From positions 1 through 46,854 of the IMG/VR virus record IMGVR_UViG_3300037467_002544: 46,854 nucleotides of DNA; one strand, 5' to 3'. Of the stretch, positions 837-43,680 are shown in pieces; within the stretch, counting starts at the first letter, position 1, and each line of letters opens with the position of its first letter. The notes beneath the pieces are model-generated. The model ran no database searches. It saw only the letters and a list, made by a program, of their open reading frames with translations, and was not told the DNA's origin. This DNA is from a virus. Its lineage: Duplodnaviria > Caudoviricetes. The position numbers were made by a program, and so were the translations under genes.

Positions 837-2084
837 ATGGACAACATTTTTTCTAACATTCTGGGCGAAGGAGCACTTCCTGAGGAAATGCTCACGTCGC
901 TTCAGGAAGCATTTGACAAGAAGGTCGCGGAAGCCCGTGAGGAGGCCGAAATGGCCATCCGTGACGAGTTCGCGGCCCGCTACGAGCACGACAAGGCCAA
1001 CCTCGTCGAGGCCATGGAGCGCATGCTCACCGATGTCATCACCAAGACGGAGACCGCCAAGGCTGATGAACTCGCCAAGCTGCACGAGGCCCGTCTGAAG
1101 CTGGAGTCGGCCATCACCGAGTCCAAGGCTCTCTACAAGAAGAAGATCCGCGAGCATCTCGATCTCTCGCAGTCGTTCGTCACCAAGCAGCTTGCCAAGA
1201 ACATCAAGTCGCTCACCGAGTCGAAGAAGAAGTTCAACACTCGGAAGCGTCAGCTTGGTGAGTCCTTCGAGGCTGTCAAGACCGAGCTTCTGCACGATCA
1301 GGCCGCCCGCATCAAGAAGATCGACGAATTCGTGGTCCGTCAGGTCAAGCGCGAACTCGAAGACTTCGAGGTCGACCGTCGCGCTCTGAACGAGCAGCGC
1401 CTCAAGCTCGTCACCGAGTCCAAGGCCAAGCTCAAGGAGACCCAGACCCGCTTCGTTCGCGAGTCCGCCCGCAAGGTCGAGGCCCGCATCAACGAGTCGC
1501 TGAAGCGCGAGATGGTTCAGCTTCACGAGGATCTGGAGCGCAACCGTCAGAACTCCTTCGGCCGCCGCATCTTCGAGGCCGTCGCTGCCGAGTTCATGAC
1601 CTCGTACCTCGCTGAGGGAACCGAGATCCGCAAGCTCCAGCACGTTCTGGAGAGCACCAACCAGGAACTGGCTGCCGCTAAGACGAAGCTCTCTGAGCAC
1701 GTCGCCGCTGCCGAGGCTGCTGACCGCAAGGTGAAGCTGGCCGAGCAGAAGGCTGCCCGCACCGCCATCATGACCGAACTGCTCTCGAACCTCCGGGGCG
1801 AGAAGAAGCAGGTCATGGAGAGCATGCTGGAGACGGTCAAGACCGACCACCTCCGCGCCGCGTTCGACCGGCTCCTGCCTGTCGTCCTCTCTGAGGGCAA
1901 GCGTTCGGCCCCGGCCGAGAAGCGCCCTGTCCTGAGCGAGAAGCCCGCTCCGACCCGTCGTCTCGTCTCGGTAACCGGTGACAAGAACCCCTCTCCTCTG
2001 CGTGAGGGCGTCGAAATCGCCGAGGATCGCGAAAACGGCACAGAAATCGGGGCTATTGTACGCCTTGCCGGTATTCGTAAGTAA
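837..2084 (+). CDS. Prohead core scaffold protein (T4 gp22-like)
   Basis: Long charged coiled-coil protein between protease and MCP; FGRRIFEA motif; many L-x-E putative protease sites. Confidence 0.85.
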   Translation: MDNIFSNILGEGALPEEMLTSLQEAFDKKVAEAREEAEMAIRDEFAARYEHDKANLVEAMERMLTDVITKTETAKADELAKLHEARLKLESAITESKALYKKKIREHLDLSQSFVTKQLAKNIKSLTESKKKFNTRKRQLGESFEAVKTELLHDQAARIKKIDEFVVRQVKRELEDFEVDRRALNEQRLKLVTESKAKLKETQTRFVRESARKVEARINESLKREMVQLHEDLERNRQNSFGRRIFEAVAAEFMTSYLAEGTEIRKLQHVLESTNQELAAAKTKLSEHVAAAEAADRKVKLAEQKAARTAIMTELLSNLRGEKKQVMESMLETVKTDHLRAAFDRLLPVVLSEGKRSAPAEKRPVLSEKPAPTRRLVSVTGDKNPSPLREGVEIAEDRENGTEIGAIVRLAGIRK

Positions 2085-3499: not shown

Positions 3500-5362
3500 A
3501 TGAAGAACGATCTCGTTGCACTTATCGAAAAGGTCGGGCTCAAGCACTACGCCCGCAGTCTCACGAAGCGGGCGGATTTGCACGCTTGGGTTATGGAGCA
3601 GACCAAGCACCTCACGCCCGATCCGACGCTGCCCGAGCGGGTCTACTACATTCTGAACGGCGATCATCGTATTTGCCAATACGGGAACCCGAAGATCTTC
3701 AACACCCTCGATAAGGGGTATCGCTTCTGTTCGGCATCCTGTCGCTGCCGCCGCGAGGAGCAGGCCCGCAAGATGCTCAACCACCATGCAGAACTTCCTC
3801 CCGAGGAGCGCGAGCGGCGTGTGGAGAAGCAGCGCGAGACGCTGAAGGAAATCCATGGTGTCGAGAACCCCATGGATCTCCCTGGAGTGAAGGAAAAGAT
3901 CAAGACGACAAACCGCAAGCGCTATGGTGGCGACCACCACATGGTCTCGGAGGAGGTGCGCACGAAGATCCGGAACACGAACCTGGAGCGTCGTGGCGTG
4001 GCGCACCCGGCCCAGGATCCCGAGGTGATGGCGAAGGTGCGTGCAACCAATCTCGAACGGTATGGCACTACCCATACGATGGATCGGGCCAGGGAGGCGT
4101 TTGCAACGGCCCATGGCGGCCTCAATCCGTTCCAGGTACCCGAGATCGAGGCGAAGCGCGCAGCAACCATGTTGGCCCGCTATGGCGTTTCTCGCGCTCT
4201 CTGCAATCCAGAGATCATGGCGCGGATGACCGCCTCGTTCCAGGCGAAGCACGACGCCACGAACCCGATGAAGATCCCGGAGGTGCGTGAAAAGCTTCGC
4301 CGGAACTATCAGGAGAAATTTGGTGTCAATAGTGCCTCGCAGAGGCACATTCCACCAGCCATCCTCGCGATCCTGGCTGACCGCGAGCAGTTCGATGCAG
4401 CACGGGAAGGGAAAAGTCTCCGAGAGACGTCGATCCACCTGGGGGTGAGCTACACGACCATTCAGCGCGCCTACGAGCGGTTCGGTATCCCGATCCCCCG
4501 CTCGTCCTATGAGGATGAGTTACTGGGATGGCTTCAGAACAAAGGCTTCGCCGTCAAGAGCGCCGACCGCATGGCGATCAAGCCGTTCGAGCTTGATCTC
4601 CTCATTGAAGAGAAGAAAGTGGCGATCGAGTTTTGCGGTCTGTACTGGCATGGTGAAACGTTCAAGATGGATCCGCTGTACCACCTCAACAAGGTAGAGG
4701 AAGCGGAGAACGCAGGCTATCGACTGGTAACGATCTTCGAAGACGAATTGGTGGACCACCGTCACGTTGTGTATTCGAGGCTGGCTGCTATCCTTGGAAT
4801 TGGGGAACGCGGGATCGGTGCTCGATCATCGACCATCAAGCCGATCAAGTCGCAAGATGCATACGATTTCTTTGACAAGTATCATGTTCAGGGTGGTGTG
4901 TACGGAAGCCACCAGTATGGTGCGTTTGATGGCGACGAGATGATCGCCTGCATGAGCTTCTCAAAGCCTCGTGTGGCTCTGGGGCGCAAGGAAGGGTCGA
5001 TGGAACTCCTCCGGTACGCCACGGACGGCCGCATGCATCCTGGTATCGCCTCTCGCCTGTTCAAGGCATTCCTGCGAGACGTGGATCCTATCTCGGTCAT
5101 GTCGTATGCGGATCGACGCTGGTCCGATGGCGGCCTCTACCGGGCTCTCGGCTTCACAGAATTGCGGCCCACCGCCCCGAACTATTGGTACGTTCATCCG
5201 TCCCGGATCAAGCGGTATCACCGCTTCAATTTCCGCAAGGATGCTCTGATCCGTGAGTATCCGGAGATGGCCGACATGACAGAGCGCGCCATCATGACGG
5301 AATTGGGCTACTATCGCATATGGGATTGTGGTCATTTCCGGTTCGCTTGGAATAAGCCGTGA
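3500..5362 (+). CDS. Hef-like putative homing endonuclease (repeats + PD-(D/E)xK/Vsr-like nuclease + GNAT-like C-terminal domain)
   Basis: Repeated T-N-x-E-R-Y-G..P units; ELDLLI..KKVAIEFCGLYWH, LVTIFEDE; C-terminal ELLRYAT..GIASRLF..SYADRRWS.G.LY..LGF..IWDCG; start moved to ATG 3500 after GAGGG. Confidence 0.8.
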   Translation: MKNDLVALIEKVGLKHYARSLTKRADLHAWVMEQTKHLTPDPTLPERVYYILNGDHRICQYGNPKIFNTLDKGYRFCSASCRCRREEQARKMLNHHAELPPEERERRVEKQRETLKEIHGVENPMDLPGVKEKIKTTNRKRYGGDHHMVSEEVRTKIRNTNLERRGVAHPAQDPEVMAKVRATNLERYGTTHTMDRAREAFATAHGGLNPFQVPEIEAKRAATMLARYGVSRALCNPEIMARMTASFQAKHDATNPMKIPEVREKLRRNYQEKFGVNSASQRHIPPAILAILADREQFDAAREGKSLRETSIHLGVSYTTIQRAYERFGIPIPRSSYEDELLGWLQNKGFAVKSADRMAIKPFELDLLIEEKKVAIEFCGLYWHGETFKMDPLYHLNKVEEAENAGYRLVTIFEDELVDHRHVVYSRLAAILGIGERGIGARSSTIKPIKSQDAYDFFDKYHVQGGVYGSHQYGAFDGDEMIACMSFSKPRVALGRKEGSMELLRYATDGRMHPGIASRLFKAFLRDVDPISVMSYADRRWSDGGLYRALGFTELRPTAPNYWYVHPSRIKRYHRFNFRKDALIREYPEMADMTERAIMTELGYYRIWDCGHFRFAWNKP

Positions 5363-21285: not shown

Positions 21286-21359
21286 TGGAACTGGCGTGCG
21301 GGCTCGAACCGCAATCCTCGGGTCCACAACCCGATGCTCTTCCTTTGAGCTACACCAGC
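21286..21359 (-). tRNA. tRNA-His(GUG), copy 2
   Basis: GCTGGTG/CGCCAGT acceptor; TCGGG-TTGTGGA-CCCGA anticodon arm; TTCGAGC T-loop; U73 and encoded CCA. Confidence 0.9.
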
Positions 21360-21387
21360 ACGAAATGCACTGCCTCGAATAGAATTT

Positions 21388-21463
21388 TGGTCCCAGCGGG
21401 TGGAATCAAACCACCTCTTCACGGTCCACAGCCATGCGTGCCAGATCATAACACTACACTGGG
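21388..21463 (-). tRNA. tRNA-His(GUG), copy 1
   Basis: CCCAGTG/CGCTGGG acceptor; CATGG-CTGTGGA-CCGTG anticodon arm; GGTGG-TTTGATT-CCACC T arm; A73 and encoded CCA. Confidence 0.85.
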
Positions 21464-26316: not shown

Positions 26317-28212
26317 TCAGATGCTGATCTGATTGCCGATCTCGACTGTGCGGGTCGTCGGCAGGTGGAAATGCTCGGCCGCGTCTACTGCCGTGGAGAC
26401 GAGGCCGATGAACAGGCTGGTCTGCCAGCAGGGCATTCGGGGAGTGGTCGCAGGGCGGACCTGCCGGCGCGAGAGGAAGAAGCTCGTCTTCATGGTGTCG
26501 AACCGCCAGCCGGTCTTGCGGCAGTCCGGCATCGCCTTGGGCACGTTCGGCTCCTCCATGAAGCCAAAGCGCATGGTCACCCGCAGGAAGCCGTCGCCGA
26601 GCGCCTCGACCGTGGCGCGCTCGCTCTTGGGCACCCGAGGAACGTCCATCGTCTTCACGGTGAGCAGCACGTTGTGCTCGTGAAGCACATGGTTGTGCTT
26701 CAGGTTGTGCAGGAGGGCCGCCGGGACCTCGGTGGGAACCGGCGTGAGGAACACGGCCGTCCCGGGCACCCGCGTGACGCTCGAACCGACAAGCAGCTTC
26801 CGGAAATGCTCGATCGGGGTCTGGTGCTTGAGTTCCTTGGCGAGCAGGATCCGCAGGCCCTTCACCCAGGTCGTCATCACGAGGACGAGACCGCCGCCGA
26901 GCAGCAGTGGGAGCCAGCCGCCTTCCAGTACCTTGAGGGTATTTGCGCCCAGGAAGACGAGATCGAGTGCCAGGAGCGGCGCCACCATGAGGCCGGCGAG
27001 CACCACCGGCCATTGCCAGACCTTCCAGGCGACCAGGAAGATCAGGACGGCGGTGATCACCATGGTCCCGGTCACGGCGATCCCATAGGCCGCGGCGAGG
27101 TTCTCGGAGGTCCGAAACAGAGCGACCAGGAGCAGCACCGCGACGAGCAACAGGGCGTTCGCCCGGGGGATGAAGATCTGCCCTTTCTCGGTTTCGCTGG
27201 TCCGGCGGATCAGCATCCGGGGAATGAGTTTCAGTTGGATCGCCTGTTGGGTGAGCGAGAACGCCCCCGAGATGACGGCTTGGCTGGCGATCACCGTGGC
27301 GACCGTGGCGAGGCCAACCATCGGGAGAAGCGCCCAGGCCGGATAGAGCAGGAAGAACGGGTTCTCGGCAGCCTCAGGGGTGCCCAGGATCAGCGAACCC
27401 TGCCCGAGGTAGCAGAGGATGAGGGAGGGAAACACAAGGGCCGTCCAGGCGGCCTGAATAGGCTTGCGACCAAAGTGGCCCATGTCTGCGTAGAGGGCCT
27501 CTGCGCCGGTCACACTGAGAAAGACCGCACCGAGCGCAAGGATGCCAGCCCAGCCGTGGGTGAGCAGGAAGCTGACCCCATGAACGGGATTGAGCGCCTG
27601 GAGGATCTGTGGGTGCTCGATCACATGCGGCAGGCCGCCGAGGCCAAGCGCGAAGAACCATACGAGCATGATCGGCCCGAAGAACCGGGCGATCGCCGCG
27701 GTGCCGCTGGCCTGGACCGCGAACAGGCCGACCAGCACGACGAGGCTGATCGGGATCACACCGTGCTCGAACGCGGGAGAGACAAGCTTCAGGCCCTCGA
27801 CGGCGGAGAGCACCGACACGGCCGGCGTGATCACACTGTCGCCGTAGAACAGGGCCGCACCGGCCATCCCGAGCAGGGCTACGAACGGCCAGGGCGAGGG
27901 GAGGGCACGCTGAACCAGGGCGGTGAGGCTGAGCGTGCCACCCTCGCCGTTGTTGTCGGCGCGCATGATCAGCATGACGTACTTGAGGGTCACGATGATC
28001 ATCAACGTCCAGATGATCAGCGAGACGACGCCGATCGTGATCGTCGGGGTGGCCGCGGCTCCATCGGAGGCTGCGCGCAGGCTCTCCTTCAGCGCGTAGA
28101 GCGGGCTCGTGCCGATGTCGCCGTAGACGACGCCGAGCGATCCGAGAGCGAGAGCGAGAAACGAGCCATGATGGGCAGCCGAGGGCGGCTGCGCGGCAGT
28201 GGGCAACGACAT
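26317..28212 (-). CDS. kup: Potassium transporter Kup (KUP/HAK/KT family)
   Basis: LGVVYGDIGTSPLYA, RADNNGEGG, GDSVITPAVSVLSAVEG, TGAEALYADMGHFG, IASQAVISG.FS, AYGIAVTG, RVPGTAVFLT, LLHNLKHN.VLHE, FGFME.P. Confidence 0.97.
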   Translation of the reverse strand: MSLPTAAQPPSAAHHGSFLALALGSLGVVYGDIGTSPLYALKESLRAASDGAAATPTITIGVVSLIIWTLMIIVTLKYVMLIMRADNNGEGGTLSLTALVQRALPSPWPFVALLGMAGAALFYGDSVITPAVSVLSAVEGLKLVSPAFEHGVIPISLVVLVGLFAVQASGTAAIARFFGPIMLVWFFALGLGGLPHVIEHPQILQALNPVHGVSFLLTHGWAGILALGAVFLSVTGAEALYADMGHFGRKPIQAAWTALVFPSLILCYLGQGSLILGTPEAAENPFFLLYPAWALLPMVGLATVATVIASQAVISGAFSLTQQAIQLKLIPRMLIRRTSETEKGQIFIPRANALLLVAVLLLVALFRTSENLAAAYGIAVTGTMVITAVLIFLVAWKVWQWPVVLAGLMVAPLLALDLVFLGANTLKVLEGGWLPLLLGGGLVLVMTTWVKGLRILLAKELKHQTPIEHFRKLLVGSSVTRVPGTAVFLTPVPTEVPAALLHNLKHNHVLHEHNVLLTVKTMDVPRVPKSERATVEALGDGFLRVTMRFGFMEEPNVPKAMPDCRKTGWRFDTMKTSFFLSRRQVRPATTPRMPCWQTSLFIGLVSTAVDAAEHFHLPTTRTVEIGNQISI

Positions 28213-29255: not shown

Positions 29256-30272
29256 TCAAACAGTTTTTTCGCTTTCGTCGATGTTGGGGCTGCCGGTGTG
29301 CGAGCGCGCGTACACGGACTTGATCTGATTGGGGTGAAAAGCGATCCAGACGTCGTGCTCGCCGAAGGTCGCGACGATCTGGCCACCCTCGTGGCGGATG
29401 CCGTCGAAGCCAGCGCGCTGAAGCCCCAGGTTCGTCTGGTTCTTCGCTTCTCCCTCGAAGTGGCTGGGCTCACCCACGCGGAGGAGCCCCTTGACAGTCG
29501 TCCAAAGGTCGTGGCCGGTCACGGCCCCTTGTTGGAGTCTGCTCTCACCAAACTCGATGAATTTTGCCTGCTTTTCTGGGTCAATCAGAAGCAAAGGAAT
29601 GAGGCGTTTAACCTGATCCCGATGGAAGAGGCCGCTCATATCGAACGGGTTCTTGATCGATAGATAGACCGGAATGACAACTGGAGTTGTTGTGCGCCGC
29701 TTCTCGACTTTCAGCTTCTTGATAAACCAATCCGGCGCGTCAGCGACGAGCCATTTTGCCATTGCCTCCGGACCTTCATTCCATGCCTTGCAGCCGGCGT
29801 TGTAGGAGCGACGGGTGCCGATATCGCGGTTCGCATCGTCGATATAGCCGTTCGACAGGAAGAGGCGCTTTGCATAAGCCATTTGCTTCTTGGTTAGCGG
29901 CGGGACCTCGAACTTGGCGCGCTGAAACGCGTAGCCGGCCTGCTGGAAACGGGCTGAGGCGTCGATTGCCTCCCAAGGATCGCTCGGGTCCAGGGCGACC
30001 TTGCCGGTGCTCCCGGCAACATCGGGGCTGTCCGTGAAGTAGAAGCCCGGCCCATACAGGCCGTTCTGGTCGACCTTGCTCACATCAAACGCCCTGATGT
30101 CGCCCGCTCCAGTGCCATGGTACATCCGCTTGGGTGTTCCGTCCTCGTTGACGCATTTCGAGCCAGCGAACCACTGGGCGAAGCTGGAGACCCGAGAGTC
30201 CTCACTGAGGCTCTGGAGGAACGTCGGTGACGGGCGATCGGTCTGCTCGATCAGGTTGAGGAAATCACGCAT
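29256..30272 (-). CDS. ADP-ribosyltransferase-like (ART-PolyVal-type) putative internal virion protein
   Basis: F..WF..SK.V..DG.P..MYHGT, YGPGFYFTD, VIPVYLSIKNPFD, GFDGI, IAF.PNQIKS; leader MRDFLNLIE; TAAATA 5 nt upstream. Confidence 0.8.
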   Translation of the reverse strand: MRDFLNLIEQTDRPSPTFLQSLSEDSRVSSFAQWFAGSKCVNEDGTPKRMYHGTGAGDIRAFDVSKVDQNGLYGPGFYFTDSPDVAGSTGKVALDPSDPWEAIDASARFQQAGYAFQRAKFEVPPLTKKQMAYAKRLFLSNGYIDDANRDIGTRRSYNAGCKAWNEGPEAMAKWLVADAPDWFIKKLKVEKRRTTTPVVIPVYLSIKNPFDMSGLFHRDQVKRLIPLLLIDPEKQAKFIEFGESRLQQGAVTGHDLWTTVKGLLRVGEPSHFEGEAKNQTNLGLQRAGFDGIRHEGGQIVATFGEHDVWIAFHPNQIKSVYARSHTGSPNIDESEKTV

Positions 30273-30837: not shown

Positions 30838-31107
30838 TCAGCCGAACCTCATCTTGAGTCGAAATGCCTGATCTTCGTTTTCCATGTACCACTGGTGGTG
30901 CCAGCCAAAACTTTCTGGACGAGGGAACTTCAACTCCAGCGGATCCGTCTCGGGGAACTGTTCTTGAATCCACTCCCGAACCTCAGAAGCATCGTGGTTC
31001 TGTGTGATGACTACAAAGCCGGCAGCGGCCCGCCGGCCGCGCAGCTTGTGGCGCTTTTCCGCCTCATCGGGCGAGTAGTATACCACGGTGCGGCGCGGTT
31101 CGCTCAT
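30838..31107 (-). CDS. Paralog-family small protein
   Basis: WIQEQFP...WYMENEDQAFRLKMRFG. Confidence 0.75.
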   Translation of the reverse strand: MSEPRRTVVYYSPDEAEKRHKLRGRRAAAGFVVITQNHDASEVREWIQEQFPETDPLELKFPRPESFGWHHQWYMENEDQAFRLKMRFG

Positions 31108-31991
31108 CCCCGGTACCTCGCCAGCACGACATCAAGGTCCGCCACAAGCTGCGCGGCCGACTGATCGCGAACGATCACTGCGTCGAGCGAGCCATAGTGG
31201 TGCTCCAGGCACTCCAGGAGCAGCGCCTTGATCCGAGGCTCGTCCGGGCCATGCGGGAGCGTGCTCTCTGCGTACACGCTCTCCAACGCGCGCTGCTTGT
31301 CTGTGAAATGCTGCTCGATCTGCTCGATCGTCCACTCGCCCCGGCGGATCGACTTCAGCATCTCGCGGTTGCGCTCCAGGTCGAGATCGTGCTCGATCAG
31401 GATCATCTCAATTTCGGACAAGAGTCTTACAATATGGTAGGCGAACTTGGTCGAGTAGCCATAAGTCTCGATGTCAGCCGCTCGGGCTTCATTGCTGGAA
31501 TTCGACTTCGAACGGATCTTTCCCATCTGAGCATACGCGTAGCCCTTGAACTTATGCCACGCGCCTTTGTGCAGGAACATCTTCCTATTCTCGCGCACAC
31601 GCTGGCCCACCTGGGTCGAGTGAATGACACAGCGCTGTGGAACGAAGAGGCTGTCAATACAGTTGGGGTTGTTCTCCATGCAAAGCTGAAAGTATTTCAC
31701 GATCGAATAGACCGAGAAATCGTACTCCTGCTTGGAGTCCGGGGCCTTCAAATGATGCTCCTGCCAGACCTCGAACCGGGGAGGCTGAGTTCCGAACCCG
31801 GGAATGACACCAGCTAGATGCGGAAACACGGTTTCCTTGGGCGGGATCGCAAACCCATAGAGATCCATGTCCGACGTATCGGAGGACACGCCGTAGGCAA
31901 CACTGCCCATGATTGTGAGGAAATGACAGTTGTTCGCCAACCACTTTGGTGGGTGCGCAACACCCGCCTTCTCAAGCTTATGAATGATCAC
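31104..31991 (-). CDS. Pol-beta superfamily nucleotidyltransferase (YcgL/RlaP-like)
   Basis: GSVAYG....SDMDLYG, NNPN.IDSLF, FKGYA.AQ, K.AYH.VRL, L.SIRRG, S.LP..PD; probable GTG start. Confidence 0.85.
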   Translation of the reverse strand: MIIHKLEKAGVAHPPKWLANNCHFLTIMGSVAYGVSSDTSDMDLYGFAIPPKETVFPHLAGVIPGFGTQPPRFEVWQEHHLKAPDSKQEYDFSVYSIVKYFQLCMENNPNCIDSLFVPQRCVIHSTQVGQRVRENRKMFLHKGAWHKFKGYAYAQMGKIRSKSNSSNEARAADIETYGYSTKFAYHIVRLLSEIEMILIEHDLDLERNREMLKSIRRGEWTIEQIEQHFTDKQRALESVYAESTLPHGPDEPRIKALLLECLEHHYGSLDAVIVRDQSAAQLVADLDVVLARYRG

Positions 31992-32052
31992 GACTGAAAC
32001 CGCTAAACAGGCAATGACCCTGTTTACGCGACCAGGGGCAGGAAAGGCAAAA

Positions 32053-32646
32053 ATGAAATTCGACACGAGTCCAACAATGCCCTATGGCTGGAGCGTTCCT
32101 GGTGACGAATTGCCAATGCCCCGCGTTTTTCCGACCGAAAATCACGCCGATCTCATCAGCCTCTCCCAGATCCTGATGTGCTGGACGATCAGCCCTACAA
32201 TGTGTGGCGAGCGCGAGTGTCAGCTTCACAAGACTGGCTTCACCGGCCTGAGCTTCGCGCAACTTTCCCCCTATGAGGCTGCCCGCATCCGAGCGTTCGC
32301 GGCCGGCCGGGGGAAGACGGTCTGCCGGATCGATCGGATCGAGGCCGGCATGGACACCGACTACGCATTCAAGCGCCGGGTGCGCTGTCTCGCCGGAACG
32401 ATCTGGCTGAAGCATGATGAGGACATTGCTGCGTTCAAGACGCTGCTCAATGAAATCCCACCGCGGTCTTGTGAGTTCCTGATCGAGAACAGCCGGTTCA
32501 CCCCGGATCTTCGCGAGCGCCTCAAAGGGAAGAACTGGACACAGATCCGCTCCGACCGTGAGGAGGAGCAGGCCACCTCGATCTTCTCGTGCGAAAGCTG
32601 CAAAGAAGCTGTTTACGTCAGAATGATGTGTTCCGCCGATGCTTGA
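32053..32646 (+). CDS. Hypothetical protein (possible remote two-domain paralog-family member)
   Basis: IWLKHDEDIAAFK and C-terminal EAVYVRMM. Confidence 0.65.
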   Translation: MKFDTSPTMPYGWSVPGDELPMPRVFPTENHADLISLSQILMCWTISPTMCGERECQLHKTGFTGLSFAQLSPYEAARIRAFAAGRGKTVCRIDRIEAGMDTDYAFKRRVRCLAGTIWLKHDEDIAAFKTLLNEIPPRSCEFLIENSRFTPDLRERLKGKNWTQIRSDREEEQATSIFSCESCKEAVYVRMMCSADA

Positions 32647-33157
32647 ATTTCCTGATGTAGAATTCGAGATACTTACGAGTTCGGTTAAAAATCATGAACT
32701 GTATAAGTACGCGGTCTTCAAGAGGACCGTTGCATCAGGCCATCCCGCCTATACGAACGGATGGGTGGGATGGTTCTTCTACCATCTCTCGCCGATGGAA
32801 CATGCTGCTCTACAAAAGGAAATCGATCGGCATCAAAATAGCTCACTGACAATCGAGCAGTTCACCATTCGCGATACGCATACGCATTACCGGATCACCT
32901 GTGAAAGCACAGTCAGGGCGATGTTGTTCGCAACCGATAAGGTCGGTCGATTGGTCGAGGCTGCAATTGAGGCCCTACCGCTCCGGAAATGCGAGCTTGC
33001 AGTCAACATTCAGGCGTTCGAGCAGTCCGGCCTGATCGAGCGGCTGGAGCAGCGCAACTGGCTGTATTTGCCCAGCACGGTGGCGGGAGATGACCGGGCG
33101 GTCATCTCCATTGAGGATTGCGAGGAACTCGCCCTGCTACGGCTGTACGAGGTCTAG
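32639..33157 (+). CDS. Hypothetical protein related to the preceding ORF
   Basis: LSP.E.A, P.R.CE, ERL...NW shared with 32053-32646; ends IEDCEELALLRLY. Confidence 0.65.
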   Translation: MLEFPDVEFEILTSSVKNHELYKYAVFKRTVASGHPAYTNGWVGWFFYHLSPMEHAALQKEIDRHQNSSLTIEQFTIRDTHTHYRITCESTVRAMLFATDKVGRLVEAAIEALPLRKCELAVNIQAFEQSGLIERLEQRNWLYLPSTVAGDDRAVISIEDCEELALLRLYEV

Positions 33158-33589
33158 CGCATCCGCTTGAACGACCCGTGCCGTCGGTGGGTGCGGGTCG
33201 TTGCTGTAGCGGTGGCCTGATGCAGGCGCATTCCGTTCGGGCCACCGGATCTGAAACAACGCGGTCCTGAGGACATCTTGCACCTCGTAGGCCCGGCGAG
33301 CGTCCTCCAGCACGTGATCATGCCCCAGGGAGTAATTCGCGCTCAACGAGTAGCCGAGCGTCACCCCGATGCCCTCCAGGAGCGTATGGACCTTCTCGAT
33401 GTCATCCAGGCTGGCGATCGAGCGCCGATCGTCAGAGAGCGGGATGAAGCGCGGGATCTCGCCGTTTGAGATCATCCAGGCCAGCGAACCGAACTGGCCG
33501 GCCATGAGGCGTGCATAGAGGTCCACAGCCTTCCGGGTGGCTTCCGCCTGCTCGGGCGAGAGTTCGAGGAGGACTCGCTGGCTCATCAC
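33137..33589 (-). CDS. Hypothetical protein
   Basis: Co-oriented ORF; A.DLYARL.AGQF. Confidence 0.7.
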   Translation of the reverse strand: MMSQRVLLELSPEQAEATRKAVDLYARLMAGQFGSLAWMISNGEIPRFIPLSDDRRSIASLDDIEKVHTLLEGIGVTLGYSLSANYSLGHDHVLEDARRAYEVQDVLRTALFQIRWPERNAPASGHRYSNDPHPPTARVVQADALDLVQP

Positions 33590-34039
33590 TCAGGCCGCCT
33601 CATCCAACAGTCGCACGACCCCGAAGCTCGGGCCGAACTCCATCAGGTGCGAGCCATTCAGCAGCGGATAGACGAATTCCGTCTCGGGACGGCGCACCTG
33701 GGGCTCGCCACCGCCATCCGGCGTCGTCACCCGCCGCAGCACCTTGATCCGATAGCGCAGGCCCGGCTCCAGAGCGATCTTGACGCCAATCGCCTCCAGG
33801 ATCCCCTCGATGTAGCAGACACGGCCGCTGTCGACGTCGAGCCCCTCCAGGCCGCCGCTGGCGTCGCGGCGGCAGTGATCGAAGCTGCGCACGCGAACCC
33901 CTGGGGCGAGCCGGTGGCCGAAAATGTCCATGGTCGGAGTGAGATCCTCCGGCTCCACGACCGGCACGAACACCGTGCCGGCGCGGATCACATTGGGCAG
34001 GAACTCGGTCCGTGCATCAACCGTCAAATGGGCCTCCAT
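33590..34039 (-). CDS. Hypothetical protein
   Basis: G.RVRSFD..CYIEG; TTGACG-N17-TATCTT promoter upstream. Confidence 0.7.
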   Translation of the reverse strand: MEAHLTVDARTEFLPNVIRAGTVFVPVVEPEDLTPTMDIFGHRLAPGVRVRSFDHCRRDASGGLEGLDVDSGRVCYIEGILEAIGVKIALEPGLRYRIKVLRRVTTPDGGGEPQVRRPETEFVYPLLNGSHLMEFGPSFGVVRLLDEAA

Positions 34040-39004: not shown

Positions 39005-39080
39005 TGGCTCCGGCGGTACGAATTGAACGTACGACATCGATGTTAACAGCATCGCGCTCTGCCAACTGAGCTACGCCGGA
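39005..39080 (-). tRNA. tRNA-Asn(GUU)
   Basis: TCCGGCG/CGCCGGA acceptor; CGATG-CTGTTAA-CATCG; TTCAATT; G73 and encoded CCA. Confidence 0.95.
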
Positions 39081-40420: not shown

Positions 40421-40672
40421 TCACGTCGCGGTGTCTCGCGACCAGCGCATGGTCAGATAGGTAGCAACCGCTTCTGAGTAGGTCCGCCAAATTGTCTTAC
40501 AGAGATCTATATCAACATATATGCAGTCATCCAGAAGCAGTGTTTCCAATGGGTGGGTCTCACGCTGCCAATCCATGACTTCTTCAATATGGCTGTTGCA
40601 TTGATCGAAGACCGGTGCCCACCAGTGATCATGGTCGGGCCTTGCGAACGTCTCGACAAGGATCTCGGTCAC
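40421..40672 (-). CDS. Paralog-family small protein
   Basis: WQRETHP...WRTYSEAVATYLTMRWS. Confidence 0.75.
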   Translation of the reverse strand: MTEILVETFARPDHDHWWAPVFDQCNSHIEEVMDWQRETHPLETLLLDDCIYVDIDLCKTIWRTYSEAVATYLTMRWSRDTAT

Positions 40673-40902
40673 GGCTGGCTCCAGAGCAGCGTCATCAGTG
40701 TGGCGGCTTTTTCATCGGAGACTTTCCAAGAGAGCTTGCAGACCTCCATGGTGATCCAATTGAGGTCCACAAAGGTTATACTTGCGTCTGGGTAGTTCGT
40801 GGATAACCACGCCTCTACCTTTCGCTGGTGGTCCTGTATGGCTGGAATATAAACTAAGGATAGCTGACTTTCTTCTCGCATGTATGTCGAACAATCAAAC
40901 AT
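40669..40902 (-). CDS. Paralog-family small protein
   Basis: WLSTNYP...WKVSDEKAATLMTLLWS; TAATG-coupled start. Confidence 0.75.
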   Translation of the reverse strand: MFDCSTYMREESQLSLVYIPAIQDHQRKVEAWLSTNYPDASITFVDLNWITMEVCKLSWKVSDEKAATLMTLLWSQP

Positions 40903-41135
40903 TACGATTGGGCCCACTTCAAAGTCATCATTAGCGCGGCATTTTCGTCGGAAATCTCCCATGTAGTTTCGCGGACATCTCCAGTTATCCATCTACCACC
41001 GCGTTGAAACCAAGTGGCGTCGGGATAGTTATCACGGATCCAAGCTGCAACATCTTTGATATGCCTATTGATTGAGGTGCAGTAGATTAATGGTTCGGTG
41101 CTTGGCTCGGAGACGTATGTAAAGCATGTGAACAT
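40902..41135 (-). CDS. Paralog-family small protein
   Basis: WIRDNYP...WEISDENAALMMTLKWA. Confidence 0.75.
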   Translation of the reverse strand: MFTCFTYVSEPSTEPLIYCTSINRHIKDVAAWIRDNYPDATWFQRGGRWITGDVRETTWEISDENAALMMTLKWAQS

Positions 41136-41137
41136 CG

Positions 41138-41386
41138 CTAGGGTGCCCACTTCATGGTCATCATCAGTGCAATGCGTTCGTCATGGATCGTCCACTCGCA
41201 CCATCCGAGACCAAGCTGTTCGTCATAGCCCTGGCAGGGCTCGACGAGGCGCGTTCCCGGGTGGTTCTCGATCAGCCAGCGCATGACTTCGTCGAGGTGC
41301 GCGCGAACGCCCTCGACGATCTTCCAGCGCCGGTAATGCAGGCCGGTGGAAGGGAAGTAGGTGCGCGCGGTCAAAAATTCGGTCAT
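41138..41386 (-). CDS. Paralog-family small protein
   Basis: WLIENHP...WTIHDERIALMMTMKWA; TAATG-coupled. Confidence 0.75.
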   Translation of the reverse strand: MTEFLTARTYFPSTGLHYRRWKIVEGVRAHLDEVMRWLIENHPGTRLVEPCQGYDEQLGLGWCEWTIHDERIALMMTMKWAP

Positions 41387-41685
41387 TACGACCACCGCAG
41401 GGCCATCATCGTGGCCAGGGTGGAGTCATCCACGATCCACTCGACCTTCTGAGTTTCATTCGAGAGCAGATGTTCGGGCGATCGCGTGCAGATGATGGAT
41501 CCATACGGGCGCTCGGCGAGATACCAGAGCCGTATCGCTGTGCGGTACTCGGCAAAGACTTGGTGGCGCCTTATGATGGAGCGAATGCCTCGATAGTGCT
41601 CCGGCACGGTGTAGTAGGTGGTTACGTCAAACCACGGTCTTGGATGAAGCATGGCCCACAATGTCATCAGCACGAAAGCGACCAA
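41386..41685 (-). CDS. Paralog-family small protein
   Basis: WYLAERP...WIVDDSTLATMMALRWS; start uncertain. Confidence 0.75.
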   Translation of the reverse strand: MVAFVLMTLWAMLHPRPWFDVTTYYTVPEHYRGIRSIIRRHQVFAEYRTAIRLWYLAERPYGSIICTRSPEHLLSNETQKVEWIVDDSTLATMMALRWS

Positions 41686-41765: not shown

Positions 41766-41987
41766 TTACTTGGCCAGCCGCTCGATTGCCGCGTAAACCG
41801 TACGAACGGTGCCGCGGTCGAGATCCTTACATGCCTCAGAGAGTTCCTGGTAGGGAACCATCATCTCCTCGCCGGTTTCACTGAGGCGGCTGGTGACACC
41901 CTGAGACTTTTTCGTTTCCATCCAAGCGTCGTGAACTTCTGCGGATACAAGTTCGATATCGGGTAAATCAGGCACTAAAAAAATCAA
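41766..41987 (-). CDS. RyR-domain small protein
   Basis: VHDAWM..K...MVPY.ELSE..KDLDR..V. Confidence 0.7.
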   Translation of the reverse strand: MIFLVPDLPDIELVSAEVHDAWMETKKSQGVTSRLSETGEEMMVPYQELSEACKDLDRGTVRTVYAAIERLAK

Positions 41988-42009: not shown

Positions 42010-43062
42010 GTTGCCGGAACTCTGCCGGCGAGGTTGCGGGAAGGGTTACCCTTGAGATTACAGGGTTGTGTGACCGGTCTTCTGGAGCGTACGGGCCGGT
42101 TCCCACCGGACCTTCCTCCATCATCCACGTCGTGGACTTGCGCCTCACGTCGTATCCAGTCAGTGCCGCCTTTTTGCTGGTGCTCCAGTCTCCACGGGAT
42201 CCTTGGGGGATCGTCCGCTTCATCGACCAGCCAGCCGAGTGGCATGTCTCGTGACGTCGAATGCTATTCGACGGCTGTCTACCCACCGCCCCTTCGGGGA
42301 GCGCTCAGGCTTGCGGGCCCTATGAGTGTCTTGCCATCAACGACCCAAACCCTTGGGAGGTCGAGATCGGCCAGATTGCCCTTCCGGGGTCCTGGCGTTA
42401 GGCACCTTTCACATTCGACCGGGACAGGCTTTCCATTTTTAAGATGATCAAGCCAGATCTGTAGATTGTTCCATCAGAGACGTGCTGTCCCGCCGCTCCA
42501 TGCGTTTCCGCACGGAATACGACACGCCTCGTTCCCCTCGCGGTGCGCGCTACTAGGAGTGACATTTGGACGACCCCGGCATCTCTGCCGAAACCACCCT
42601 GAGTCATGCCGGACGCTCTTGCCTGCGGGGCTCGAACTGGACCGACTATCCGTTACCATCCGCTTCGTGCCGGTGTTGCATGTCCAGACCGCAGGGTGCA
42701 ACGCCCGCTATGACGAACGTGCCTCCGACACGGCCGAAGCCGTGCCAGGGCAGTGAGCCCGCCACTCCCCAGCCAAGGGGAGCCTGAACCCGGCCGTTCC
42801 GCTTAGCTCCGTATAAGCGCCGAAGCGCCCGATACCTACGAAGCACCTCCTTTGGGGAGGTCGGCTCGGACCTGCATAGATGAACCGCCTTGTGAGCGGC
42901 GCAGGGTTGTGGAGTCCCTGCTTTGGGCCGGTTGCCCGGCTTATCCTAACGACGCTATGCCGCCAAACTCTGACGATCTTAACAATCCAGCGACGTGGTG
43001 GCGAATTGTTTTTGATCGTTTACGCTTCCGAGGAACCGTCGTTTCCGTCGGCGTCCTCATCA
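42010..43062 (-). ncRNA. Large (~1 kb) structured noncoding RNA, GOLLD-like
   Basis: No credible ORF; dense hairpins with minus-strand UUCG/GNRA tetraloops; TTGCGC-N18-TATACA promoter at about 43070-43098; boundaries approximate. Confidence 0.7.
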
Positions 43063-43161
43063 TTTCTCTTGTATATCCTGGAACGATTCGTCGGCGCAAT
43101 ATCGAATTTCAGGATTTCAGGTTCATTGTGTTCCCGGGGGGTCAAGGCACATTGGGAACGG

Positions 43162-43680
43162 TCAGGATCCTGTGTGAAACATCATCTTGAACAGGGCAGC
43201 GTCACGGCACCGCTCGAACACTGCGGCGCGGCGAGCGATCATATAGCGGTTCCAGCAGTTCTCTGCGCACCATTCACGCGCCTCGGTCTCGCGCGTCATC
43301 GGATACTCGACCAGGAGGAGATTTTCGCCCTGGCGCTTCCAGGCTGGGAATTCGGCCGCTGCGAGCCGCTTCCAGTCCTTGGTCGAGACCTTCTGGTGCT
43401 CGGCGAAGGGAAGCACATGCTGATGGACGTTCGCCTCGTACTGATAGATCCGACGATCCTCGGGCGTCGGCTCGAACCAGCGCCGCTTGAGCCGTGCACG
43501 CATGTCGATGACCTCGCCCGGTGGGGCTGGATCCGCAGCCTGCTCCAGCACAACCACACCGGCCATGAACGGCAGCCACATCTGATCGCGATCATACTGG
43601 CCATACAGGACGAGCGGTTGCTCGACCTGGATGACGCGTAGCCGGTTGAGCTTGTCCCGAAACAGGGCTTGGGAGAGCAT
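43162..43680 (-). CDS. Hypothetical protein with C-terminal paralog-family-like domain
   Basis: EWCAENC...VFERCRDAALFKMMF. Confidence 0.7.
   Translation of the reverse strand: MLSQALFRDKLNRLRVIQVEQPLVLYGQYDRDQMWLPFMAGVVVLEQAADPAPPGEVIDMRARLKRRWFEPTPEDRRIYQYEANVHQHVLPFAEHQKVSTKDWKRLAAAEFPAWKRQGENLLLVEYPMTRETEAREWCAENCWNRYMIARRAAVFERCRDAALFKMMFHTGS

Follow-up and report, generated by a model that had tools for sequence, protein, structure and literature searches.

The 1-kb gap at 42010..43062 of the virus DNA analysed here (46,854 nt in all, referred to as the window) is, as judged from its sequence, the gene for a GOLLD RNA encoded on the minus strand and not a new class of RNA. GOLLD is a known family of giant phage RNAs, for which a tRNA-rich location is typical, albeit not required; to our knowledge, its function has been an open question since 2009. 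The RNA of the window is GOLLD by every defining feature that could be tested, including that it is noncoding and resides in a phage, the virus record encoding a head protease, a capsid protein and a clamp loader. In the reading that we regard as probable, the locus represents the complete GOLLD gene of a T4-like jumbo phage, the product of which would adopt a two-domain fold, form an RNA-only cage and, instead of carrying tRNA, act as a decoy or multivalent binding surface. The features of the locus are compiled in Table 1.

Table 1. Features of the GOLLD locus in the window, listed in the direction of transcription
Feature	Position	Strand	Basis
Weak sigma70-type promoter candidate, TTGCGC-N18-TATACA	43070..43099	-	Position and Phosso counterpart
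Full-length GOLLD RNA, ~1,016 nt, both ends inferred	42048..43063	-	3′ P27 hairpin; 5′ end behind promoter
First leader hairpin, P1-like, GAAA-capped	43029..43059	-	Pair probabilities 0.89-0.99; GAAA-capped leader hairpin also in Phosso
Second leader hairpin, ~47 nt, part of the extra length	42973..43019	-	Pair probabilities 0.97-0.98
Conserved core P2-P3-P4-P5; L3 is a GNRA loop	42884..42967	-	Cp1R7A-A1 identity and profile
Variable 5′-domain arms including both UUCG hairpins; P numbering approximate	42720..42869	-	Folds
Distal 5′ domain, P10-P13 region	42539..42714	-	Single-sequence and comparative folds disagree
P14, GAAA-looped, at the donor position of bridge B6; Rfam 3′ domain begins here	42478..42530	-	Rfam match
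Short linker, 46 nt, without tRNA-like unit; 3′ end bears B7 GG (42433-42434)	42433..42477	-	Alignment; identical in runs X3, X5
P15 enclosing P19, P20 (L20 CC), P21, P21a (loop GC, B8), P21b (loop CG, B9)	42256..42419	-	Rfam match and alignment
J17/22:L22 pseudoknot, 4 pairs (42248-42251 with 42236-42239)	42236..42251	-	Alignment
Inserted L22 arm, ~60 nt, standard kink-turn sequence, 5-nt terminal loop	42176..42235	-	Sequence and fold
P23-P27; conserved L27 hairpin at the end, with 3/3 possible pairs between L27 and P23	42048..42162	-	Rfam match
GC-rich hairpin past the RNA, without adjacent U-run; not a canonical terminator	42013..42029	-	Sequence

Identity, ends and length of the RNA

The Rfam model of GOLLD, RF02032, matches positions 42049-42530 of the minus strand with 153.9 bits (E=2.8e-41), which is 3.9 bits above the gathering cut-off of 150; the match covers the whole model, positions 1-416, with one 63-nt local insert, and none of 14 control genomes matches the model. 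For ROOL, group I/II introns, RNase P and tmRNA, no Rfam match was obtained even at E up to 10, nor did ARAGORN call a tmRNA, and these identities were discarded; at that threshold, no Rfam model other than GOLLD gave a credible match. The sequence-only reading of this DNA had offered the GOLLD label and proposed an Infernal search to verify it; the label is borne out over the full model, the 5′ half being the family's 5′ domain. That reading had left room for either a long variant or a new class. The former applies to an RNA of ~1,016 nt, while the latter is ruled out.

The five hairpins from which that reading had set out are all found on the minus strand at the positions given, with the 3′ one at 42048-42066 and the other four at 42729-42744, 42817-42828, 42927-42940, and 42500-42513. 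The minus strand of the region contains six GNRA or UNCG hairpins with at least five pairs, compared to a mean of 0.39 in dinucleotide shuffles, none of 1000 of which reaches six. With five stable-tetraloop hairpins, the GOLLD region also tops the 88 one-kb windows listed, every other one having at most four. Fold z-scores against shuffles are modest, the 5′ half of the RNA scoring -2.81 and its 3′ half -1.91. The gap is not strictly free of open reading frames, for mechanically predicted ones overlap it, but none of these is conserved in homologs; at 19 homolog loci, only stretches of 15-40 residues match, some of them with stops, and the two overlapping frames checked have no Pfam match. Protein coding at 42010..43062 is ruled out by these short matches, in part with stops, and by the missing Pfam match of the two frames checked, and the noncoding claim withstood the search for a conserved protein-coding signature among the 19 homolog loci, where none was found. 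An assembly artefact was likewise rejected for the 3′ half, the linker and the L22 arm, which are identical in sequencing runs X2, X3, X5 and X6; the run contigs compared cover no part of 42866-43130.

The 3′ boundary had been placed at 42010. A hairpin indeed closes the RNA, but the conserved part stops at 42048, and with the 5′ end at approximately 43063 a length of ~1,016 nt results. This start would lie behind a sigma70-like promoter composed of TTGCGC (43099-43094), an 18-nt spacer and TATACA (43075-43070), in which the T at -7 is missing. The promoter proposed earlier is weak and was called by neither the consensus scan nor a custom scorer; it is favoured by its position and by its counterpart in Sinorhizobium phage Phosso, where a clear promoter, TTGCAA-N17-TATAAC, occupies the equivalent position, followed by a first hairpin of similar kind. 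Promoters lacking the T at -7 are common in alphaproteobacteria (PMC7703639). A scan for an intrinsic terminator after the RNA found none.

The GOLLD members studied by cryo-EM measure 700, 744, and 833 nt. In relatives with a callable promoter, the promoter-based RNA length is mostly 895-914 nt, with L010 (~1,022 nt), L004 (938 or 1,037 nt) and L194 (1,013 or 1,115 nt) being longer. Since relatives reach about 1 kb, this length marks the long end of the family and does not fall outside it; the RNA is long, as was first noticed, albeit less exceptional than suggested, considering the similar estimates for L194 and L010.

The two domains and their contacts

Because Rfam models GOLLD only in its 3′ part and none of its models matches the 5′ half, that half was assessed separately; by sequence comparison, these 530 nt upstream of the 3′ match represent the 5′ domain of GOLLD. 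The sole nucleotide match among 50,697 phage records, 59 nt at 93% identity in Mesorhizobium phage Cp1R7A-A1, sits 340 nt upstream of an unannotated GOLLD (193.5 bits). A motif common to both sequences led to 110 loci, eight of which, with less than 350 nt downstream, were left out. A GOLLD 3′ domain lies downstream of the motif in 35 of the 38 loci with the P3 hairpin and in none of the 64 without it, where the counts overstate independence, many homologs being near-duplicates. A 5′ profile built without the window matches 42868-42970 with E=9.5e-21 and, weakly, 42607-42659 (E=0.022). Of 165 cells in P2 and P3, 96.4% are paired, and 30 two-sided changes are seen there, neither figure being reached in 500 shuffles; in slid controls, pairing drops to 35-47%. 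As the motif used for the search included the P3 stem, the presence of this stem is selected for, although three of the five pairs could vary freely. Over the entire 5′ alignment, two-sided change occurs at 59 of 77 consensus pairs. Exact-pattern scans of viral contigs for close relatives returned none or one (L113), and none of 24 genome-contig motif matches is accompanied by a GOLLD 3′ domain.

The 5′ core was likened by eye to the start (P2-P3) of env-38, a GOLLD of known structure, in which L3 is the donor of bridge B1 (PMC12286853). L4 (42910-42913) can form four of four contiguous pairs with 42470-42473, relatives having four to eight; the own-versus-cross score of 14.8 versus 12.8 is weak covariation evidence. 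Phosso, Cp1R7A-A1 and L113 have a shorter second leader hairpin or lack it. At 42600-42715, the single-sequence fold differs from the comparative fold, with the latter being favoured, and P numbers past P5 are approximate. Owing to these two alternative folds, the 5′-cap bridges B2-B5 are left unmapped, the mapping onto env-38 being by eye only.

The solved GOLLD cages are 12- and 14-mers. In these assemblies, the 3′ domains form a ring and the 5′ domains cap it; the two half-shells are joined via L21a, L21b and an A-minor contact, with the linker inside (PMC12286853). The sequence of the window would fit bridges B7, B8, and B9 of the 3′ ring. Bridge B7, between linker and L20, is paired in all 18 long-type sequences, as GC/GC in 17 of them and as GG/CC in the window, and L21a of the window keeps the GC of B8. 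For L21b, the window departs with CG from the GC of all 15 other long-type rows; as both dinucleotides are self-complementary, the symmetric B9 kiss is allowed in either state. The cage contacts thus appear to have been recoded with pairing kept. L21b was too conserved for covariation analysis in PMC12286853, and its change from GC to CG in the window, along with the paired switch in B7, constitutes natural evidence for the cage contacts.

The J17/22:L22 pseudoknot retains four of four pairs in the window, with mostly five in relatives, and L27 matches P23 at three of three positions. Two low-depth contigs of run X6 (depth ~2) differ from the window by 14 listed substitutions and one paired indel. 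Eight changes fall into modelled helices, and with the indel taken into account pairing is preserved in all of them, whereas a pair survives a random change at one of its sites 20% of the time. P19 and P20 show two-sided changes, and one loop is converted from GAGA into GCGA. Within the limits of a depth of ~2, these pair-keeping changes argue against a decaying relic. CCAA is present in three hairpin loops of the minus strand, namely, at the insert tip, in L20 and in one 5′ arm, and its complement UUGG in one 5′ loop (42198-42212, 42348-42362, 42845-42861, and 42764-42783, respectively); these loops could possibly engage in new or competing kissing contacts.

The linker, the L22 arm and the relatives

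In 16 of the 17 other long-type relatives, the linker comprises 86-95 nt, and 15 of these linkers contain a T-arm and an anticodon arm. Units with D, anticodon, and T arms are seen in L002, L004, L006, L008, L010, L018, L021, and L022, and further in L028, L074, L075, L078, L084, L113, and L200; the unit of Cp1R7A-A1 is annotated as an ordinary tRNA-Leu. Because only 0-6 acceptor pairs can be formed in the 14 units measured and the anticodon loops vary widely, the embedded "tRNAs" resemble tRNA mimics. L018 and L022 are near-identical to L028, and what separates them from it is mainly the anticodon arm, with 13 and 8 changes in 22 nt, respectively; this hypervariability is found in two of five pairs compared, both involving L028, and is absent from the other three. 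The units may possibly serve as decoys for anticodon nucleases. A tRNA-like unit is absent not only from the window, but also from L194, which belongs to a 543-kb capsid relative, and from nine short-type relatives.

L22 of the window comprises 70 nt, compared to 10-14 nt in 26 homologs (24 of them aligned; 13 nt in Phosso and L194). The arm inserted there carries the standard kink-turn pattern at the level of sequence, with a 3-nt bulge (42222-42224), G.A, A.G, and A.G pairing of 42219-42221 with 42191-42193, a C-stem of six pairs and an NC-stem of four. An equally strong match arises in 1 of 5000 shuffles and any match in 71 of 5000; in the 46,854-nt stretch, both strands included, there are five equally strong matches. 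The folding energy of the insert is unremarkable, 132 of 1000 shuffles folding as well. The arm was read without differences in runs X2, X3, and X6, one of which may be the source sample. Since it occurs in no relative outside near-identical strains, covariation does not contribute to its support; at none of the 54 loci obtained in a scan for further L22 arms is a GOLLD 3′ domain present. With HmKt-7, a standard kink-turn, the arm has in common the 3-nt bulge, the G.A and A.G pairs, C-G at -1, and A.G at 3b,3n, the latter of which allows HmKt-7 to fold in ions alone (PMC5061560). The likeness is one of sequence pattern, and an L7Ae- or YbxF-type partner is putative. By folding as a kink-turn, the arm would present either its tip loop or a protein site.

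Of the GOLLDs compared, env-38 (833 nt, 14-mer cage; PMC12286853) has in common with the window the whole 3′ model, the P2-P5 core, the GNRA loop L3, the L22 pseudoknot, L27, P21a, P21b, the GC of L21a and a tRNA-less linker. The window RNA is ~180 nt longer and possesses two leader hairpins and the L22 kink-turn arm, whereas no kink-turn is contained in Supplemental Table 1 of PMC12286853 for env-38; B7 is GA/UC in env-38 and GG/CC in the window, L21b is GC and CG, respectively, and L14 of the window is a GAAA tetraloop. The Streptococcus agalactiae GOLLD (700 nt, 12-mer) has the conserved 3′ domain P14-P27, and is devoid of P9, P11a-c, and P21b, whereas P21b and long 5′ arms are present in the window (PMC12990946). 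Phosso (PV764938, 186.6 bits) and Cp1R7A-A1 (MT188704) belong to the same long subtype with colinear 5′ and 3′ domains and, as is the case for the window, likely have alphaproteobacterial hosts; their GOLLDs are ~900 nt long, lack the L22 arm and include a tRNA-like unit with only three acceptor pairs. Both are unannotated (L200, 1063-1969, corresponding to ~33095-34001 of PV764938; L002, 2966-3864). ROOL is likewise a large cage-forming phage RNA; it is unrelated in sequence and fold. The window GOLLD would be set apart from the described members by its predicted L22 kink-turn arm and the recoded bridges. In the literature covered on GOLLD and RNA nanocages, neither an L22 insertion nor a GOLLD in rhizobial jumbo phages is reported, which carries little weight because key papers and the published GOLLD alignment lay outside the search.

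Two further observations come from other phages. In a complete 524-kb capsid relative, a promoter-led RNA of ~425 nt (L195, ~1285-1711, plus strand; G002:C1, ~472750-473176) matches GOLLD P22-P27 with its last third (44.7 bits, E=1.7e-9; fold z -2.51); a P14-like hairpin was recognized by eye and the 5′ profile gave no match, so that nature may have produced here a mini-GOLLD devoid of the 5′ cap. In Cp1R7A-A1, the GOLLD is followed by a 600-nt unannotated hairpin-rich stretch (L002, ~3870-4480) and a weak tmRNA match (L002, 4760-4877; 26.6 bits).

Phage context and function

The source of the window is a T4-like jumbo phage, and an alphaproteobacterial host is likely. The record, estimated to be 12% complete, encodes PhoH and a GroES-like protein in addition to the structural and replication proteins mentioned above. 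Its capsid protein is closest to that of Phosso (469 kb), with 76.5% identity, and is 67.1% identical to that of Agrobacterium phage Atu_ph07, while the clamp loader is slightly nearer to Pseudomonas jumbo phages (48.5%) than to Phosso or Atu_ph07; public runs containing the stretch derive from soil and rhizosphere DNA. Among seven complete capsid relatives, two have a full GOLLD 3′ domain, one has a partial one and four have none; five further capsid relatives yielded no GOLLD, which carries no weight because all of them are fragments. The nearness to tRNA genes mentioned in the sequence-only reading does not apply here, the nearest tRNA (39005-39080) being ~3 kb away. The RNA is flanked by genes coding for unknowns and by a RyR-domain gene. 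The latter, directly after the RNA (41766-41987, minus strand), encodes a small stand-alone protein (PF02026, E=4e-6, at the cut-off) and may be co-transcribed with GOLLD because no terminator lies between; proteins of phages with this domain have been described to break down or sequester the signals of Thoeris (PMC13232231).

Elsewhere on the minus strand, a full-length Kup-type potassium transporter gene (26317-28212), probably host-derived, lies in a stretch of 65% GC and adjoins a tRNA-Thr; other features of this strand are genes for an ADP-ribosyltransferase (ART-PolyVal, 29256-30272) and an RlaP-type nucleotidyltransferase (31104-32066) and two tandem tRNA-His(GUG) calls of quite different sequence (21286-21463). 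A run of short open reading frames at 40421-41685 (minus strand), in which similar terminal words recur (e.g., MMTLKW, MMALRW, MMTMKW), resembles a paralog array and has no PHROGs or Pfam match; this run lies downstream of the RNA, and the gene at 43162-43680 on the upstream side has a related ending.

In the proposed pathway, host RNA polymerase would transcribe GOLLD from the weak upstream promoter, the transcript would fold into the two domains of the family, and loop contacts would assemble the chains into a hollow RNA-only cage. By analogy to the assemblies in PMC12286853, self-assembly of the window RNA is likely. During infection, such a cage would offer host factors a decoy or a multivalent surface to bind, a role that is proposed because of the patchy distribution of GOLLD, the reported dispensability of one member and a structure that is intact without tRNA cargo. 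GOLLD expression is linked to lysis (PMC12286853), and for one prophage it is known that its GOLLD, although accumulating in lysis, can be dispensed with (cited in PMC7567579). The least certain part, a sponge, decoy or scaffold role from which the phage would benefit only in some hosts, is put forward tentatively.

Other scenarios account for part of these data. Ribosome pull-downs of GOLLD are cited in PMC12286853, and GOLLD often occurs among tRNA genes, from which it could be argued that the RNA directly binds ribosomes or translation factors and tunes late-infection translation, with the cage as a storage form; this is unlikely, considering that the window and Phosso copies are located among protein genes, outside tRNA arrays. 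The patchy distribution among the seven complete capsid relatives, together with the fact that the only nucleotide match resides in a 131-kb phage, Cp1R7A-A1, which is absent from the 25 capsid matches listed, would also suit a ribozyme or a selfish mobile RNA hitch-hiking between phages. Neither a nuclease nor a reverse transcriptase is adjacent, however, no intron model matches, and no catalytic site is described in the sections of the structure paper covered (PMC12286853), which renders this explanation decidedly unlikely.

A storage or carrier shell for the embedded tRNA or its mimic, as proposed in PMC12990946, would agree with the long, tRNA-like linkers of most long-type relatives; the tRNA-less copy of the window, whose RF02032 score is close to the cut-off, would then be a decaying relic. 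This is improbable to a high degree: the nine short-type relatives, L194 and env-38 are equally without tRNA, and the helices and bridge pairings kept in the window, along with the pairs kept in the X6 variants, point to continuing selection on structure. Next to no probability is attached to a fusion in which an independent element or an RNA of a new class, as the 5′ half, was joined to the GOLLD 3′ domain. Rfam covers the 3′ domain only and matches nothing in the 5′ half, but the 5′ core co-occurs with the 3′ domain in nearly all loci bearing the P3 hairpin, resembles env-38 in P2-P3 by eye, and is linked through the L4 pairing to the 3′ half.

With the cage-forming decoy as the preferred reading, the L22 arm raises a more doubtful idea, namely, that the tRNA-like cargo of the subtype was swapped for a kink-turn arm in the core. 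This might create a new repeated docking site, be it for an L7Ae-type, YbxF-type or phage protein or for a loop contact not seen before, and the cage could possibly be larger or differ in its number of chains. If this were true, GOLLD cages would be modular display platforms with exchangeable payload. The GOLLDs of Phosso and Cp1R7A-A1, residing in cultured rhizobial phages, represent tractable knockout systems. That the conserved core tolerates an arm of 60 nt is of relevance to RNA cage engineering as well as to the cargo hypothesis.
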